Assembly: GCF_041248615.1 (NCBI RefSeq)
Contig: NZ_CP158426.1
Source of the DNA: Escherichia coli
Lineage (GTDB): Bacteria; Pseudomonadota; Gammaproteobacteria; Enterobacterales; Enterobacteriaceae
Strand: one strand, 5' to 3'
DNA length: 64,000 bases
Shown: piece by piece, positions 2,030 to 63,102 of the stretch
How the letters are laid out: the number at the start of each line of letters is the position of its first letter
Numbering within the stretch: the first letter of the stretch is position 1
Notes under the pieces: generated by a model
Told to the model about the DNA's origin: nothing
Seen by the model: the letters and a program-made list of their open reading frames with translations, nothing else
Database searches by the model: none
Made by a program: the position numbers and the translations under genes

Positions 2030-4471
2030 TCACTCTGCCACTTTTTTCTTCGCCGCACGCTTCGCTTTGGTCGCTGCGGCTATTTTCTGCGTTTTCGCCG
2101 ATGGCTTTTTCGCTTTTCTCGCGTCTTTCTTCGCCGCTTTCGGCTTCGTTTTTTTCTCACCACGGAAGGCGCTGTCTGGCTCAAAGTTTACCTTTTTACC
2201 GACCTGACGACGCTTGCCGCCTTTTTTACCTGCATCGCCTTTTTTCGCTTTCTCGCGCGCCGTTTTACCTACGTTGCGCGGTGCGCGTTCGCTGGAGATC
2301 AGGCTAAAGTCGATTTTACGCTCGTCCATATTAACCGCTTCGACGCGAACTTCCACGCGATCGCCCAGGCGATAAGTCTGGCCGCTGGATTCACCCATCA
2401 GGCGTTGCCCTACCTGGTCAAAGCGATAGTAGTCATTGTCCAGCGAAGAGACATGGACCAGACCATCAATGAACAAGTCGTCCAGACGGACAAAGAATCC
2501 AAAGCCAGTGACGCTGGAAATTACGCCTTTAAAGACGTTACCTACCTGGTCGAGCATGAAGTCACACTTCAGCCAGTCAGCCACATCGCGCGTTGCTTCG
2601 TCGGCACGACGTTCTGCCATCGAACAGTGCTGACCCAGTTGCAGCATCTCTTCCATCGAATAATGGTAGCCGCCGGTTTCAGTGGTGTTACCCTGATGCC
2701 CCTGCTCTTTCGCCAGCAGATACTTAATGGCGCGGTGCAGCGTCAGGTCAGGATAACGACGAATCGGCGAAGTGAAGTGCGCATAGGACTGCAATGCCAG
2801 ACCGAAGTGACCACGGTTTTCTGGATCGTAAATCGCCTGTTTCATCGAGCGCAGCAGCATGGTTTGCAGCATTTCTGCGTCAGGACGATCGGCAACCGAC
2901 TCCAGCAGCTCCGCGTAGTCACGCGGTTCCGGCTTGTTACCGCCCGGCAATTCCAGCCCCAGCTCCGCCAGCACTGAACGGAAAGAGGTAATTGCTTCGG
3001 TGCTCGGCTTGTCGTGAATACGGAACAGTGCTGGTTCCTTGGCTTTCTCAACGAAACGCGCCGCCGAGATATTCGCCAGAATCATACACTCTTCAATTAA
3101 TTTGTGTGCGTCGTTACGCTGGGTCTGTTCGATACGTTCAATACGGCGTTCAGCGTTGAAAATGAACTTCGCTTCTTCGCTCTCAAATGAGATCCCACCA
3201 CGTTCTTCACGGGCTTTATCCAGCACTTTATAGAGGTTATGCAACTCTTCGAGATGCTTAACCAGTGGGGCGTACTGCTCGCGCAGATCCTGATCGCCCT
3301 GCAGAATATGCCAGACTTTGGTGTAGGTCAGACGTGCGTGAGAGCTCATTACCGCTTCATAGAATTTGTAGCCAGTCAGGCGGCCTTTCGACGAAACCGT
3401 CATCTCGCACACCATACACAGGCGGTCTACCTGCGGGTTGAGCGAACACAGACCGTTAGAGAGCACTTCCGGCAGCATCGGGATAACCTGCGAAGGGAAG
3501 TACACCGACGTACCACGGTTACGCGCTTCTCTGTCCAGCGGTGTTGGCGGACGCACATAGTAGCTGACGTCGGCAATCGCGACCCATAAACGCCAGCCGC
3601 CGCCGCGTTTTTTCTCGCAGTAAACTGCATCGTCAAAGTCACGGGCGTCTTCGCCATCAATGGTGACCAGCGGTAAATCGCGCAGATCGACACGGCCCGC
3701 TTTTGCTTCTTCCGGCACTTCTTCTTTCAGCCCGGCAACCTGTTGCTCAACGGCCTGCGGCCAGATATACGGAATTTCATGGGTACGCAGAGCGATATCA
3801 ACCGCCATGCCGGTGCCCATATTGTCGCCAAGTACTTCGACGATTTTACCCACCGCTTTGGTACGGCGAGTCGGGCGTTGGGTCAGTTCAACAACCACCA
3901 CAAAGCCCATCCGCGCGCCCATGATCTGATCGGGCGGGATTAAGATATCGAAGCTCAAACGACTGTCGTCAGGAACCACAAAGCCGACGCCCGCTTCGGT
4001 AAAGTAGCGACCAACAATCTGGCTGGTTTTTGGCACCAGTACGCGGACAATACGCGCTTCACGACGACCTTTACGGTCAGCACCCAGCGGCTGCGCCAGC
4101 ACCTGATCGCCATGAATGCAGGTTTTCATCTGCTCGCTGGAGAGATACAAATCATCTTTACGCCCTTCAACCCGCAGAAAGCCGTAGCCATCACGGTGGC
4201 CAATAACGGTACCTTTCACCAGGTCGAGGCGTTCCGGCAGCGCATAGCACTGACGACGAGTGAAGACCAGTTGACCATCGCGCTCCATCGCGCGCAGGCG
4301 GCGACGCAGGCCTTCAAGCTGCTCTTCGCCTTCAATGTGCAGTTCTACCGCCAGCTCATCACGGCTGGCCGGTTTTTCACGTTTGGTTAAATGTTCGAGG
4401 ATAAATTCCCGACTAGGGATGGGATTCGCGTATTTTTCAGCTTCGCGTTCCTGGAAAGGATCTTGTGACAT
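2030..4471 (-). CDS. rnr: Ribonuclease R (813 aa from ATG at 4471; ORF track extends to 827 aa from an upstream alternative start)
   Basis: Translation [20 protein letters not shown]... with a lysine-rich C-terminal tail; 813-aa form matches recalled K-12 RNase R. Confidence 0.95.
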
Positions 4472-36061: not shown

Positions 36062-36355
36062 CTGATTAAACAGGGAAGTTTAATCTTTGCACGTTGCATA
36101 ACCTTTAATTATTCATATACATTGCTGTTATTACTTTTTATATAACCAACACCAATAATTAACCTTTCTTTTCTGTTTATATAGAGTGAGCACGGCTATT
36201 TATGTTATTTTAACAACTATTACTACCAAGCCCATTTATCTGGCTTATAAATTAAAATTAATTATTTAATTGAGAAATGGTTAGGGAGAACCTACATGGC
36301 CATAAGCATCAAGGGTGTTAATACCGGTGTTATTCGCAAGAGCAATAATTTCATT

Positions 36356-36364
36356 GCACTGGCG
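36356..36364. repeat. IS1 target-site duplication, left copy (GCACTGGCG)
   Basis: 9-bp sequence immediately flanking the IS1 end at 36365, identical to 37133-37141. Confidence 0.9.
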
Positions 36365-36379
36365 GGTAATGACTCCAAC

Positions 36380-36883
36380 TTATTGATAGTGTTTTATGTT
36401 CAGATAATGCCCGATGACTTTGTCATGCAGCTCCACCGATTTTGAGAACGACAGCGACTTCCGTCCCAGCCGTGCCAGGTGCTGCCTCAGATTCAGGTTA
36501 TGCCGCTCAATTCGCTGCGTATATCGCTTGCTGATTACGTGCAGCTTTCCCTTCAGGCGGGATTCATACAGCGGCCAGCCATCCGTCATCCATATCACCA
36601 CGTCAAAGGGTGACAGCAGGCTCATAAGACGCCCCAGCGTCGCCATAGTGCGTTCACCGAATACGTGCGCAACAACCGTCTTCCGGAGCCTGTCATACGC
36701 GTAAAACAGCCAGCGCTGGCGCGATTTAGCCCCGACGTATCCCCACTGTTCGTCCATTTCCGCGCAGACGATGACGTCACTGCCCGGCTGTATGCGCGAG
36801 GTTACCGACTGCGGCCTGAGTTTTTTAAATGGCGGAAAATCGTGTTGAGGCCAACGCCCATAATGCGGGCGGTTGCCCGGCAT
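36380..36883 (-). CDS. insB: IS1 InsB reading frame (167 aa; expressed as an InsAB' fusion by -1 frameshifting)
   Basis: ORF translation [64 protein letters not shown]... matches IS1 InsB. Confidence 0.95.
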
Positions 36884-37077
36884 CCAACGCCATTCATGGC
36901 CATATCAATGATTTTCTGGTGCGTACCGGGTTGAGAAGCGGTGTAAGTGAACTGCAGTTGCCATGTTTTACGGCAGTGAGAGCAGAGATAGCGCTGATGT
37001 CCGGCAGTGCTTTTGCCGTTACGCACCACCCCGTCAGTAGCTGAACAGGAGGGACAGCTGATAGAAACAGAAGCCAC
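36802..37077 (-). CDS. insA: IS1 InsA (91 aa) transposition inhibitor / N-terminal part of the transposase
   Basis: ORF translation [43 protein letters not shown]... matches IS1 InsA (zinc-finger plus HTH). Confidence 0.95.
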
Positions 37078-37132
37078 TGGAGCACCTCAAAAACACCATC
37101 ATACACTAAATCAGTAAGTTGGCAGCATCACC

Positions 37133-37141
37133 GCACTGGCG
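37133..37141. repeat. IS1 target-site duplication, right copy (GCACTGGCG)
   Basis: Identical 9 bp to 36356-36364, directly abutting the other IS1 end. Confidence 0.9.
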
Positions 37142-37991
37142 CTGAAAATTAAAGAGCCTCGCAATAAAGAATCGTTGTTCTTTCTGTCTGTCATGGAACT
37201 GCGCGACCTTCTGATTGCGCTGGAAAGCCGTTTGCATCAAAAGCATAAACTGGATGCTGCTGCACGCCTTCAGTATGAGCAAGCTCGCGATAAAGTCATT
37301 AAGAAAATGGCAGAAAATATCCCAGAAATTCTGGTTGATGAGCTTAAAAATGCCGATATTAATCGTCGGGTTAACACGCTGGAACTTACCGATAATCAGG
37401 GTGAAAATCTTACCTTCGTATTAACGCTACATGACGGTAGCAAATGTGAATTAGTCATCAATGAATTGCAGATTGAAATGCTGGCGCGAGCAATCATTCA
37501 TGCAATTAATAATGCGGAAATGCGTGAACTGGCATTACGTATTACCTCACTGTTAGATTTCCTACCGTTATACGATGTTGACTGCCAGGACAATGGCAAT
37601 CTGGAATATGACACCTATTCCCAACCGGAATGGAAACATAACTTGTTCAACCATTATCTGGCGGTGCTTTACCGCTTTAAAGATGAAAGTGGCAAAGAAC
37701 AATTTAGCGGCGCAGTGGTGAAAACGCGTGAAGCAACGCCGGGTAAAGAAGTGGAGGCGATCACTCGACGAATGCTTGATTTCAGCCCACGACTGAAAAA
37801 ACTCGCGGGTGTACCATGTCAGGTCTATGTTCGCACCGTAGCGGCAAATAACGCCCAACCGCTAACCCAGGATCAATGCTTACGCGCGCTACATCACTTA
37901 CGTGTTCAATCCACCAGCAAAACTGCACCACAGGCGAAATAATCCCATCTGTTTTACTACGAGGCTGGAAGTATCCAGCCTCTGGATCCCA

Positions 37992-58798: not shown

Positions 58799-59071
58799 TC
58801 AACTTCGAATATCATCATACTCACGCGTTTTATCAAATTCGTGTTTCGCAAATGGGCATAGTGGGATAATTTTTCGTTTTTCCCGACGCATTTTTTCCAC
58901 GACTTTCGCAACCAGCTGTTTACCAATCCCTTGCCCTTTCAGGCTTTCATCGACATCGGTATGTTCGATAATCGCTAAATTCTCTCCGGTCGGCACAAAG
59001 ACAATTTCAGCGATTTGCTTGCCCTGTTCGTCATTAATGTAAAATTTATTGTGGCCTTCGCGTATTTCCAT
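58799..59071 (-). CDS. yjdJ: GNAT-family acetyltransferase-like protein YjdJ (90 aa)
   Basis: ORF translation [54 protein letters not shown]...; GNAT motif A (Q/RxxGxG/A). Confidence 0.8.
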
Positions 59072-59082
59072 TTTACCCTCGC

Positions 59083-59313
59083 TTATTTATGACGGTATTT
59101 CAGCGCGCCACTCGGGCACGTATCAATCACTTTAACCACAGTGGCAACGTCGACTTCATCCGGCATGATCCACGGCTTTCGTTTGAGATTAAATAACTTG
59201 CCGTTGCCACGTACGCAATTGCCAGAATGCTGACATATCGCAGTGTTGAAATAGACATCGATCTTTTCGCCGGTATAACAGCGATAACCCCCGTCCAGTA
59301 GCGCCTGATCCAT
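59083..59313 (-). CDS. yjdI: Small Cys-rich protein YjdI (76 aa from ATG at 59313)
   Basis: Translation [55 protein letters not shown]...; the ORF track shows a 102-aa extended version. Confidence 0.8.
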
Positions 59314-59332
59314 GACCTTCCCTCTCTCATCA

Positions 59333-60597
<1,265 letters not shown>

Positions 60598-60754
60598 GAT
60601 TATCGCTATAAGCATAGCCCCGGAATCTTCATACAGCACTGGCAGTTTCCGTTGCCAGAGTCTCTTCCCCTATATAGCCAATCATTCTTACTCCCTTTGA
60701 ATTACCCGCCTCATCAGAGATAATGCTTAAGAAATTTGTCACACAAGGAAGCTG

Positions 60755-62386
60755 ATGAGACATTCATTGCCCTACCGCATGTTACGCAAACGTCCGATGA
60801 AATTGAGTACCACAGTGATCTTAATGGTCAGCGCGGTACTGTTCTCGGTGCTATTGGTGGTGCATCTGATTTACTTCTCGCAAATCAGTGATATGACGCG
60901 AGACGGGCTAGCCAACAAGGCACTGGCGGTGGCGCGTACCCTCGCCGACTCGCCGGAAATCCGTCAGGGCTTGCAGAAAAAACCGCAGGAGAGCGGCATC
61001 CAGGCCATCGCGGAAGCCGTGCGCAAACGCAACGATCTGCTGTTTATTGTCGTTACCGATATGCAAAGTCTTCGCTACTCGCATCCTGAAGCCCAGCGTA
61101 TTGGTCAGCCATTTAAAGGTGATGACATCCTTAAAGCGCTGAATGGCGAAGAAAATGTCGCTATCAATCGCGGTTTTCTGGCGCAGGCTTTACGCGTATT
61201 TACCCCCATCTACGATGAAAATCATAAGCAAATTGGCGTGGTGGCGATCGGCCTTGAGTTAAGCCGCGTGACCCAACAGATCAATGACAGTCGCTGGAGC
61301 ATTATCTGGTCGGTATTATTTGGCATGCTGGTCGGACTGATTGGCACCTGCATTCTGGTTAAAGTATTGAAAAAAATCCTTTTCGGCCTGGAACCCTACG
61401 AAATCTCCACGCTGTTTGAGCAACGCCAGGCCATGTTGCAGTCCATCAAAGAAGGCGTCGTTGCCGTGGACGATCGCGGCGAGGTCACGCTGATCAACGA
61501 TGCCGCACAAGAATTGCTGAATTACCGTAAGTCGCAGGACGATGAGAAGCTGTCGACGCTAAGCCACTCGTGGTCACAGGTAGTAGATGTCTCGGAAGTG
61601 TTACGCGACGGTACGCCGCGCCGCGACGAAGAGATTACGATTAAAGACCGGCTATTACTGATCAACACCGTTCCGGTGCGCAGTAATGGCGTTATCATCG
61701 GTGCCATTTCAACCTTCAGAGACAAAACTGAAGTACGTAAACTGATGCAGCGACTCGACGGTCTGGTCAACTATGCTGACGCACTTCGTGAACGATCCCA
61801 CGAATTTATGAATAAATTGCATGTGATTCTCGGATTATTGCATCTGAAGAGTTATAAGCAGTTGGAAGATTACATTCTCAAAACAGCCAATAACTATCAG
61901 GAAGAGATTGGCTCTCTGCTGGGTAAGATCAAATCTCCGGTTATCGCTGGTTTTTTAATCAGCAAGATTAACCGCGCGACCGATTTAGGCCATACGCTGA
62001 TTTTAAACAGTGAAAGCCAACTGCCAGACAGCGGCAGTGAGGACCAGGTCGCGACGCTGATTACCACATTGGGAAATCTGATAGAAAACGCGCTGGAAGC
62101 ATTAGGGCCGGAACCCGGAGGCGAAATTAGCGTAACATTGCACTACCGTCACGGCTGGCTGCACTGTGAAGTTAACGATGATGGACCGGGGATCGCACCC
62201 GACAAAATCGATCACATTTTTGACAAAGGTGTCTCGACAAAAGGAAGCGAGCGAGGCGTCGGTTTAGCACTTGTCAAACAACAGGTAGAAAATCTCGGCG
62301 GCAGCATCGCCGTGGAATCGGAACCCGGGATTTTCACACAATTTTTTGTCCAGATACCCTGGGACGGGGAGAGGTCGAACAGATGA
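60755..62386 (+). CDS. dcuS: C4-dicarboxylate sensor histidine kinase DcuS (543 aa)
   Basis: Translation with two TM helices, a periplasmic PAS domain, cytoplasmic PAS and HisKA/HATPase domains; full-length match to DcuS. Confidence 0.95.
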   Translation: MRHSLPYRMLRKRPMKLSTTVILMVSAVLFSVLLVVHLIYFSQISDMTRDGLANKALAVARTLADSPEIRQGLQKKPQESGIQAIAEAVRKRNDLLFIVVTDMQSLRYSHPEAQRIGQPFKGDDILKALNGEENVAINRGFLAQALRVFTPIYDENHKQIGVVAIGLELSRVTQQINDSRWSIIWSVLFGMLVGLIGTCILVKVLKKILFGLEPYEISTLFEQRQAMLQSIKEGVVAVDDRGEVTLINDAAQELLNYRKSQDDEKLSTLSHSWSQVVDVSEVLRDGTPRRDEEITIKDRLLLINTVPVRSNGVIIGAISTFRDKTEVRKLMQRLDGLVNYADALRERSHEFMNKLHVILGLLHLKSYKQLEDYILKTANNYQEEIGSLLGKIKSPVIAGFLISKINRATDLGHTLILNSESQLPDSGSEDQVATLITTLGNLIENALEALGPEPGGEISVTLHYRHGWLHCEVNDDGPGIAPDKIDHIFDKGVSTKGSERGVGLALVKQQVENLGGSIAVESEPGIFTQFFVQIPWDGERSNR

Positions 62387-63102
62387 TCAATGTATTAATT
62401 ATCGATGACGACGCAATGGTCGCGGAGCTGAATCGCCGATACGTAGCACAAATCCCAGGCTTTCAATGCTGTGGAACAGCCTCGACGCTGGAGAAAGCCA
62501 AAGAGATTATCTTCAATAGCGATACGCCTATCGACCTGATATTGCTCGATATCTATATGCAAAAAGAGAACGGGCTCGATTTACTGCCTGTCCTGCATAA
62601 CGCGCGTTGCAAAAGTGATGTGATTGTCATCTCCTCCGCAGCCGATGCGGCAACCATTAAAGATTCCCTGCATTACGGTGTTGTGGATTACCTGATCAAA
62701 CCCTTCCAGGCTTCCCGCTTTGAAGAGGCGCTCACCGGCTGGCGGCAAAAGAAAATGGCGCTGGAAAAACATCAGTATTATGACCAGGCCGAGCTTGATC
62801 AGCTAATCCACGGCAGCAGCTCCAACGAGCAGGATCCTCGTCGCTTGCCAAAAGGCTTAACGCCGCAGACGTTACGCACGCTGTGCCAGTGGATTGACGC
62901 GCATCAGGACTATGAGTTTTCAACCGACGAGCTGGCTAACGAGGTTAACATCTCGCGTGTTTCCTGCCGAAAATACCTCATCTGGCTGGTCAACTGCCAC
63001 ATCTTGTTCACCAGTATCCATTATGGCGTCACAGGGCGTCCGGTTTACCGTTACCGTATTCAGGCAGAACACTACTCACTGCTGAAACAATATTGCCAAT
63101 AA
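62383..63102 (+). CDS. dcuR: Response regulator DcuR (239 aa)
   Basis: Translation MINVLIIDDDAMVAELNRRYVAQIPGF... (REC domain plus HTH); start overlaps the dcuS stop by 4 nt. Confidence 0.95.
   Translation: MINVLIIDDDAMVAELNRRYVAQIPGFQCCGTASTLEKAKEIIFNSDTPIDLILLDIYMQKENGLDLLPVLHNARCKSDVIVISSAADAATIKDSLHYGVVDYLIKPFQASRFEEALTGWRQKKMALEKHQYYDQAELDQLIHGSSSNEQDPRRLPKGLTPQTLRTLCQWIDAHQDYEFSTDELANEVNISRVSCRKYLIWLVNCHILFTSIHYGVTGRPVYRYRIQAEHYSLLKQYCQ

Follow-up and report, generated by a model that had tools for sequence, protein, structure and literature searches.

Insertion sequences are known to activate the genes next to which they insert, be it from an outward or hybrid promoter or by read-through. 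IS1 and IS5 do so at bgl, the right ends of IS2 and of other IS3-family elements carry functional -35 hexamers, and IS911 acts through a junction promoter. In Escherichia coli K-12 MG1655, the sensor gene dcuS is separated from its divergent neighbour yjdI by a native spacer of 180 bp (4351663-4351842, with the dcuS edge at 4351662 and the yjdI start at 4351843). The transcription start of K-12 dcuS was reportedly mapped by Goh et al. in 2005, who are also said to have described that nitrate represses the dcuS promoter through NarL. Cells contain very few molecules of DcuS, a protein of very low abundance (PMC9429925). Here we analysed a stretch of E. coli DNA of 64,000 nucleotides (the window), in which a copy of ISEc31 lies in the spacer between yjdI and dcuS, and compared this locus to the systems named above.

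The ISEc31 insertion between yjdI and dcuS

According to the RefSeq annotation, the genes around the insertion are ordered dtpC, lysS, ghoT, ghoS, yjdJ, yjdI, ISEc31 transposase, dcuS, dcuR, dcuB and fumB. The remaining window is ordinary core chromosome (hfq, mutL through frdABCD, ampC, groSL, aspA-dcuA, cadC). The two-component system formed by DcuS and DcuR was confirmed by the match of both proteins to curated family models, by the adjacency of the two genes and by their position upstream of dcuB-fumB (order dcuS-dcuR-dcuB-fumB). The DcuS, DcuR and YjdI proteins are each identical to those of K-12. The following features, given in window coordinates, make up the locus.

59083-59313, minus strand: yjdI (RefSeq annotation), encoding a 4Fe-4S mono-cluster protein; divergent neighbour of dcuS, intact
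59314-59339, no strand: native intergenic DNA left with yjdI, 26 bp, ending in the left GAT copy
59340-60597, plus strand: ISEc31 (IS3 family), 1,258 bp, with its transposase co-oriented with dcuS
60586-60591, plus strand: outward -35-like hexamer TTGACC within the right inverted repeat, from which the idea of a hybrid promoter arose
60598-60754, plus strand: residual dcuS upstream region, 157 bp, beginning with the right GAT copy (3 bp, 60598-60600)
60689-60709, plus strand: block of partial conservation that overlaps and flanks the -35 (cross-genus alignment)
60697-60724, plus strand: putative sigma-70 core promoter of dcuS (consensus scan and conservation)
60745-60751, plus strand: Shine-Dalgarno-like AAGGAAG upstream of the dcuS ATG (direct sequence reading)
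60755-62386, plus strand: dcuS, C4-dicarboxylate sensor histidine kinase of 543 aa, with its ATG at 60755 (NF008298, 854.6 bits; cutoff 520)
62383-63102, plus strand: dcuR, response regulator of 239 aa (NF007750, 503.6 bits; cutoff 262)

ISEc31 is present as a single copy within the window. Direct reading of the sequence placed its left edge at 59340, where it starts with TGTAGTGG, and its right edge at 60597, where it ends with CCACTACA; the 8-bp tips TGTAGTGG and CCACTACA are identical parts of otherwise imperfect terminal inverted repeats. A 3-bp direct repeat (GAT) is found on either side of the element, at 59337-59339 and 60598-60600, and represents the target-site duplication. The termini fit the rule for the IS3 family, which has 5'-TG...CA-3' ends and a target-site duplication of 3-4 bp. 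The orfA start lies at 59412 and the stop at 60587-60589. An A6G -1 frameshift motif (AAAAAAG) is located at 59672, and fusing the frames at this motif gave an intact, uninterrupted OrfAB of 404 aa. The transposase matched NF033516 (transpos_IS3) with 303 bits (cutoff 160). Moreover, the element is 99.5-99.9% identical over its whole length to many records annotated as 'IS3-like element ISEc31 family transposase', and the RefSeq annotation also names an ISEc31 transposase at the insertion site.

Two side observations were made on mobile elements in the window. The Rfam family isrC (RF01387, 'Hfq binding RNA') matched 59408-59530 on the plus strand over its full length (150 bits, E = 5e-38). 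This match covers the 5' end of the ISEc31 orfA, beginning 4 nt before the ATG, so that a catalogued sRNA family overlaps the leader and coding start of an IS3-family transposase. In addition, the window contains a second insertion sequence, an IS1B family element at 36380-37077 (region ~36296-37942), which divides yjeJ between a short annotated fragment and an ORF of greater length.

When ISEc31 and one GAT copy were removed, joining 59314-59339 to 60601-60754, the resulting spacer was identical to that of K-12 at 180/180 positions. The reconstructed empty site also matched IS-free E. coli genome sequence, including NZ_OW967178.1, at 100% over 599 bp. Since removal of the element and one GAT restores the empty site exactly, the insertion is a genuine and clean transposition event. 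ISEc31 transposed into the 180-bp yjdI-dcuS spacer of the clinical isolate NRZ14408, at a point 26 bp before the yjdI start codon. Of the split spacer, 154 bp (86%) stay with dcuS and 26 bp with yjdI. The distance from the element to the dcuS start codon is 154 bp, or 157 bp when the duplicated GAT is counted, and that to the yjdI start codon is 26 bp.

A sequence-only reading of this DNA had placed 157 bp between the element and dcuS (60598-60754). These coordinates are correct, with 3 bp belonging to the GAT duplication. The same reading had called the remaining upstream region short, which describes the 157 bp but is misleading, as the native spacer is itself only 180 bp long and 86% of it is retained. 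It had also stated that dcuS now lacks its divergent partner. Indeed, yjdI has been moved 1,258 bp further from dcuS, but the gene is intact and not lost. What was missed is that yjdI, and not dcuS, is the gene that was separated from most of the intergenic DNA, and yjdJ probably was too.

The ISEc31 insertion is strain-private: it was found in only one of 5,426 complete E. coli genomes, that of NRZ14408, and the uninterrupted site in 5,346 of them. The 2.1-kb stretch around the insertion is 100% identical to NRZ14408 (NZ_LT599825.1) and is covered in full by no other complete genome of E. coli. A 225-bp query across the spacer was contiguous in 5,365 of the 5,413 matching genomes and not in the other 48. 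In one of these 48, EC2641 (NZ_JALDNN010000001.1 locus, 2750-3578), the edge of an IS1B element lies 75 bp upstream of the dcuS ATG, and dcuSR is otherwise ordinary. The IS1B edge is equivalent to window position 60680, 17 bp upstream of the -35, and the conserved TTGAAT/GATAAT block was spared. Beyond IS1B, unrelated DNA of a cbtA/yeeU toxin-antitoxin island replaces yjdI. The EC2641 locus is an IS1-associated rearrangement and not a simple insertion, and it shows that mobile elements upstream of dcuS are not unique to NRZ14408. In a published survey, the espC island of ST131 was placed in the yjdIJKO region (PMC5538559).

Conservation of the region upstream of dcuS

Orthologous loci were gathered with a degenerate pattern from the periplasmic domain of DcuS, which gave 29 stretches, 28 of them with dcuS. 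The reconstructed native sequence of the window and 28 species-representative loci from the genera Escherichia, Citrobacter, Salmonella and Trabulsiella were aligned over 260 bp upstream of the start codon (n=29). Four of the aligned sequences are from Escherichia (the window and three loci) and 25 are non-Escherichia sequences. The consensus scan reported a single promoter-like site in the residual region, consisting of a -35 hexamer TTGAAT (60697-60702), a 16-bp spacer and a -10 hexamer GATAAT (60719-60724). TTGAAT was present in 26/29 and GATAAT in 27/29 aligned sequences, and the spacer was 16 or 17 in all of them. Among the 25 non-Escherichia sequences, the identity to the window was 0.97 at the -35 and 0.99 at the -10, 0.69 in the promoter spacer and 0.59 in the 11 bp 5' of the -35. 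Across 60601-60685 it was 0.12-0.24, and on the yjdI side the 26 bp showed an identity of 0.24, where chance would give ~0.25. By these values, the conserved dcuS promoter module is confined to the ~70 bp directly preceding the ATG.

The weight-matrix score of the putative dcuS promoter was 10.7, which is no better than that of shuffled sequence (best scores: median 10.1, 95th percentile 13.5). Sequence-only promoter prediction was therefore dropped as evidence for dcuS, and the case for the promoter rests on the cross-genus conservation. From this conservation we infer that the hexamers are the functional dcuS promoter. Transcription of dcuS is predicted to start at ~60731, ~24 nt upstream of the ATG. 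The ISEc31 junction lies at about -134 relative to this predicted start, and the putative -35 begins 99 bp downstream of the element.

The flanks of the -35 and the 3' half of the promoter spacer (CATCAG), all within 60689-60718, are partly conserved in the four genera, which suggests a candidate regulator site overlapping the dcuS promoter. Two heptamers, TACTCCC (60689-60695) and TACCCGC (60703-60709), are NarL-heptamer-like when compared to the consensus TACYYMT. A regulator site at this position would be compatible with the NarL repression that is said to operate in K-12. Because the reconstructed spacer is identical, K-12 mapping applies here base for base. However, the full-text citing papers found by literature search contained no coordinates for the mapped dcuS start or the NarL footprint. 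The searchable supplementary files of genome-wide start-site and related papers likewise held no entry for dcuS, yjdI, b4125, b4126 or the K-12 coordinates. Literature on dcuS of BL21(DE3) (PMC8317463) was set aside, as it concerns a coding frameshift and not the promoter.

Within the four Escherichia sequences, conservation extends to the distal spacer. Directly next to the junction, TCGCTATAAGCATAGCCCC (~60602-60620) is identical in all four and now lies across ISEc31 from yjdI. In E. albertii, a gap of ~15 bp is found within 60660-60680. No structured RNA, terminator or Rfam family was found in the residual region, the sole Rfam match being located inside ISEc31. An inverted repeat, CTGGCA-N8-TGCCAG, is present in the distal residual region at 60640-60659 on the plus strand; it is not followed by a T-run and is not conserved in E. 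albertii. Salmonella enterica subsp. diarizonae carries ~7 copies of the pentanucleotide ACAAG ~100-150 bp upstream of dcuS, upstream of the conserved block, and S. arizonae has at most a remnant of this run in the same place.

We also determined which genes neighbour dcuS in the 28 loci. In a tblastn search, yjdI adjoined dcuS only in the three Escherichia loci, and it was absent in eleven non-Escherichia loci, each of which offered 800 bp or more of sequence upstream. The other genera have entirely different upstream neighbours of dcuS and keep the same promoter hexamers. The pairing with yjdI is Escherichia-specific and therefore not a conserved part of dcuS control. In Klebsiella, the orthologs of yjdI/yjdJ are KPN_03295-03296, far in locus-tag order from KPN_01550-01551, which were paired with dcuR/dcuS at only 57-66% identity (PMC3415461 supplement).

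Predicted effects of the insertion on dcuS and yjdI

Taken together, we hold it probable, at roughly 78%, that the dcuS promoter is intact, that there is no loss of DcuS and that yjdI (probably with yjdJ) has been cut from most of the intergenic DNA. For the expression of dcuS and for yjdI we infer the following consequences. The putative core promoter (60697-60724) remains joined to dcuS, together with its partly conserved flanks and the ribosome-binding site. The dcuSR genes would most likely still be transcribed and regulated from their native promoter, with no loss of basal DcuS, and ISEc31 would likely add, at most, low co-directional read-through. The sequence-only reading had argued that native dcuS promoter elements must either lie in the 157 bp or have been displaced beyond the element. 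This logic is sound, and the conserved promoter-like element lies entirely in the retained 157 bp. Its further prediction, that basal DcuS is altered through the loss of such elements, is not supported, as TTGAAT-16-GATAAT is retained and the only 26 bp displaced are not conserved outside Escherichia. Since the dcuS core promoter is most likely intact, reduced expression of dcuS would be unlikely.

An increase in dcuS expression has more in its favour, though we regard this too as unlikely. ISEc31 could raise basal dcuSR either by read-through of transcripts begun in the left inverted repeat, at the transposase promoter, or by a hybrid promoter built on the right-end TTGACC, and the extra DcuS would shift the balance with the co-sensors DctA and DcuB. 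The transposase and dcuS share the same strand, and with so few DcuS molecules per cell even small absolute changes could matter. A consensus scan of 59000-60900 reported no terminator-like site, hence none between the transposase stop and dcuS, and the RNA of 60570-60770 has no more stable fold than shuffled sequence (z = 0.38), which makes some IS-derived transcription into dcuS plausible. However, IS3-family transposase promoters are weak, and any read-through must still cross the intact native dcuS promoter region. It is possible that read-through causes at most a low-level, modest increase of dcuS expression.

The hybrid promoter, which had been raised as a possibility before, was considered in its own right. 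The outward -35-like hexamer TTGACC is indeed present, 7 bp from the right end of ISEc31, but it has no properly spaced -10. Its best -10 partner at a spacing of 16-18 bp is AAGCAT (18 bp, 3/6 match to TATAAT), with a score of 9.2. TATAAG is found at a spacing of 15 bp, without the final T, and scores 7.8. Both candidates are below the shuffle median of 10.1 and neither was reported in the consensus scan. We therefore rejected a hybrid promoter at the ISEc31 right end on account of its poor geometry. A more far-reaching scenario, in which read-through or a weak hybrid promoter lifts DcuS above its co-sensor transporters and leads to partly ligand-independent or nitrate-insensitive C4-dicarboxylate signalling, while yjdI-yjdJ is silenced, appears quite improbable.

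The opposite effect would require that an upstream element of dcuS was lost beyond ISEc31, or that dcuS was uncoupled from the divergent yjdI promoter, be it in supercoiling or in regulation. In support of this, the insertion has pushed 26 bp of the spacer, with everything beyond them, away by a further 1,258 bp, the distal spacer is conserved within Escherichia, and the cross-genus conservation leaves room for an Escherichia-specific element in the displaced 26 bp or beyond, or for uncoupled divergent promoters. Nevertheless, a lowering of dcuS expression in this way is very improbable, as the 26 bp moved away lie directly at the yjdI ATG and have only chance identity outside Escherichia, the junction, with ~134 bp to the predicted start, lies farther out than class I activator sites and UP elements usually do, other genera keep the same hexamers behind different upstream neighbours, E. 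albertii has a gap in the distal part, and EC2641 retains only 75 bp of native sequence before dcuS.

With the dcuS promoter most likely intact, yjdI is more likely to be affected by the insertion than dcuS. Unless transcription starts within the remaining 26 bp, yjdI and probably yjdJ could be transcribed only across the entire ISEc31, against the direction of the transposase. A weight-matrix scan gave no well-scoring candidate for the native yjdI promoter. We also considered a yjdI promoter made by the junction, with TACAAT on the minus strand at 59343-59338 (formed by the IS tip and the flank). This candidate was unconvincing, with a poor -35 and a score of 8.6.

As such, the event is an ordinary IS insertion of an already known type in a public, annotated genome, and matters little. 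A modest by-product of the analysis is the phylogenetic footprint of the dcuS promoter, together with the Escherichia-specific divergent arrangement of yjdI and dcuS. If ISEc31 did change the level of DcuS, the locus would present a natural case of a low-abundance sensor retuned by an insertion sequence, but nothing here points in that direction.

Comparison with known systems

The closest system is the dcuSR control region of K-12. The reconstructed spacer is the same as in MG1655 at all 180 positions, as are both proteins of the two-component system. In contrast to K-12, a 1,258-bp insertion sequence is located ~134 bp upstream of the predicted dcuS start. The EC2641 locus is similar in that an insertion sequence lies immediately upstream of an intact dcuSR and outside the TTGAAT/GATAAT block. 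It differs in the element, which is IS1B, in the native sequence left before dcuS (75 bp) and in the DNA beyond, where a toxin-antitoxin island is found instead of yjdI. With the insertion sequences that activate neighbouring genes, ISEc31 shares its IS3-family membership, its co-orientation with the downstream gene, a TTGACC hexamer close to its right end (7 bp) and the lack of a terminator-like site before dcuS. Unlike in those cases, this hexamer has no properly spaced -10, and dcuS keeps its own conserved promoter, the -35 of which lies 99 bp downstream of ISEc31.
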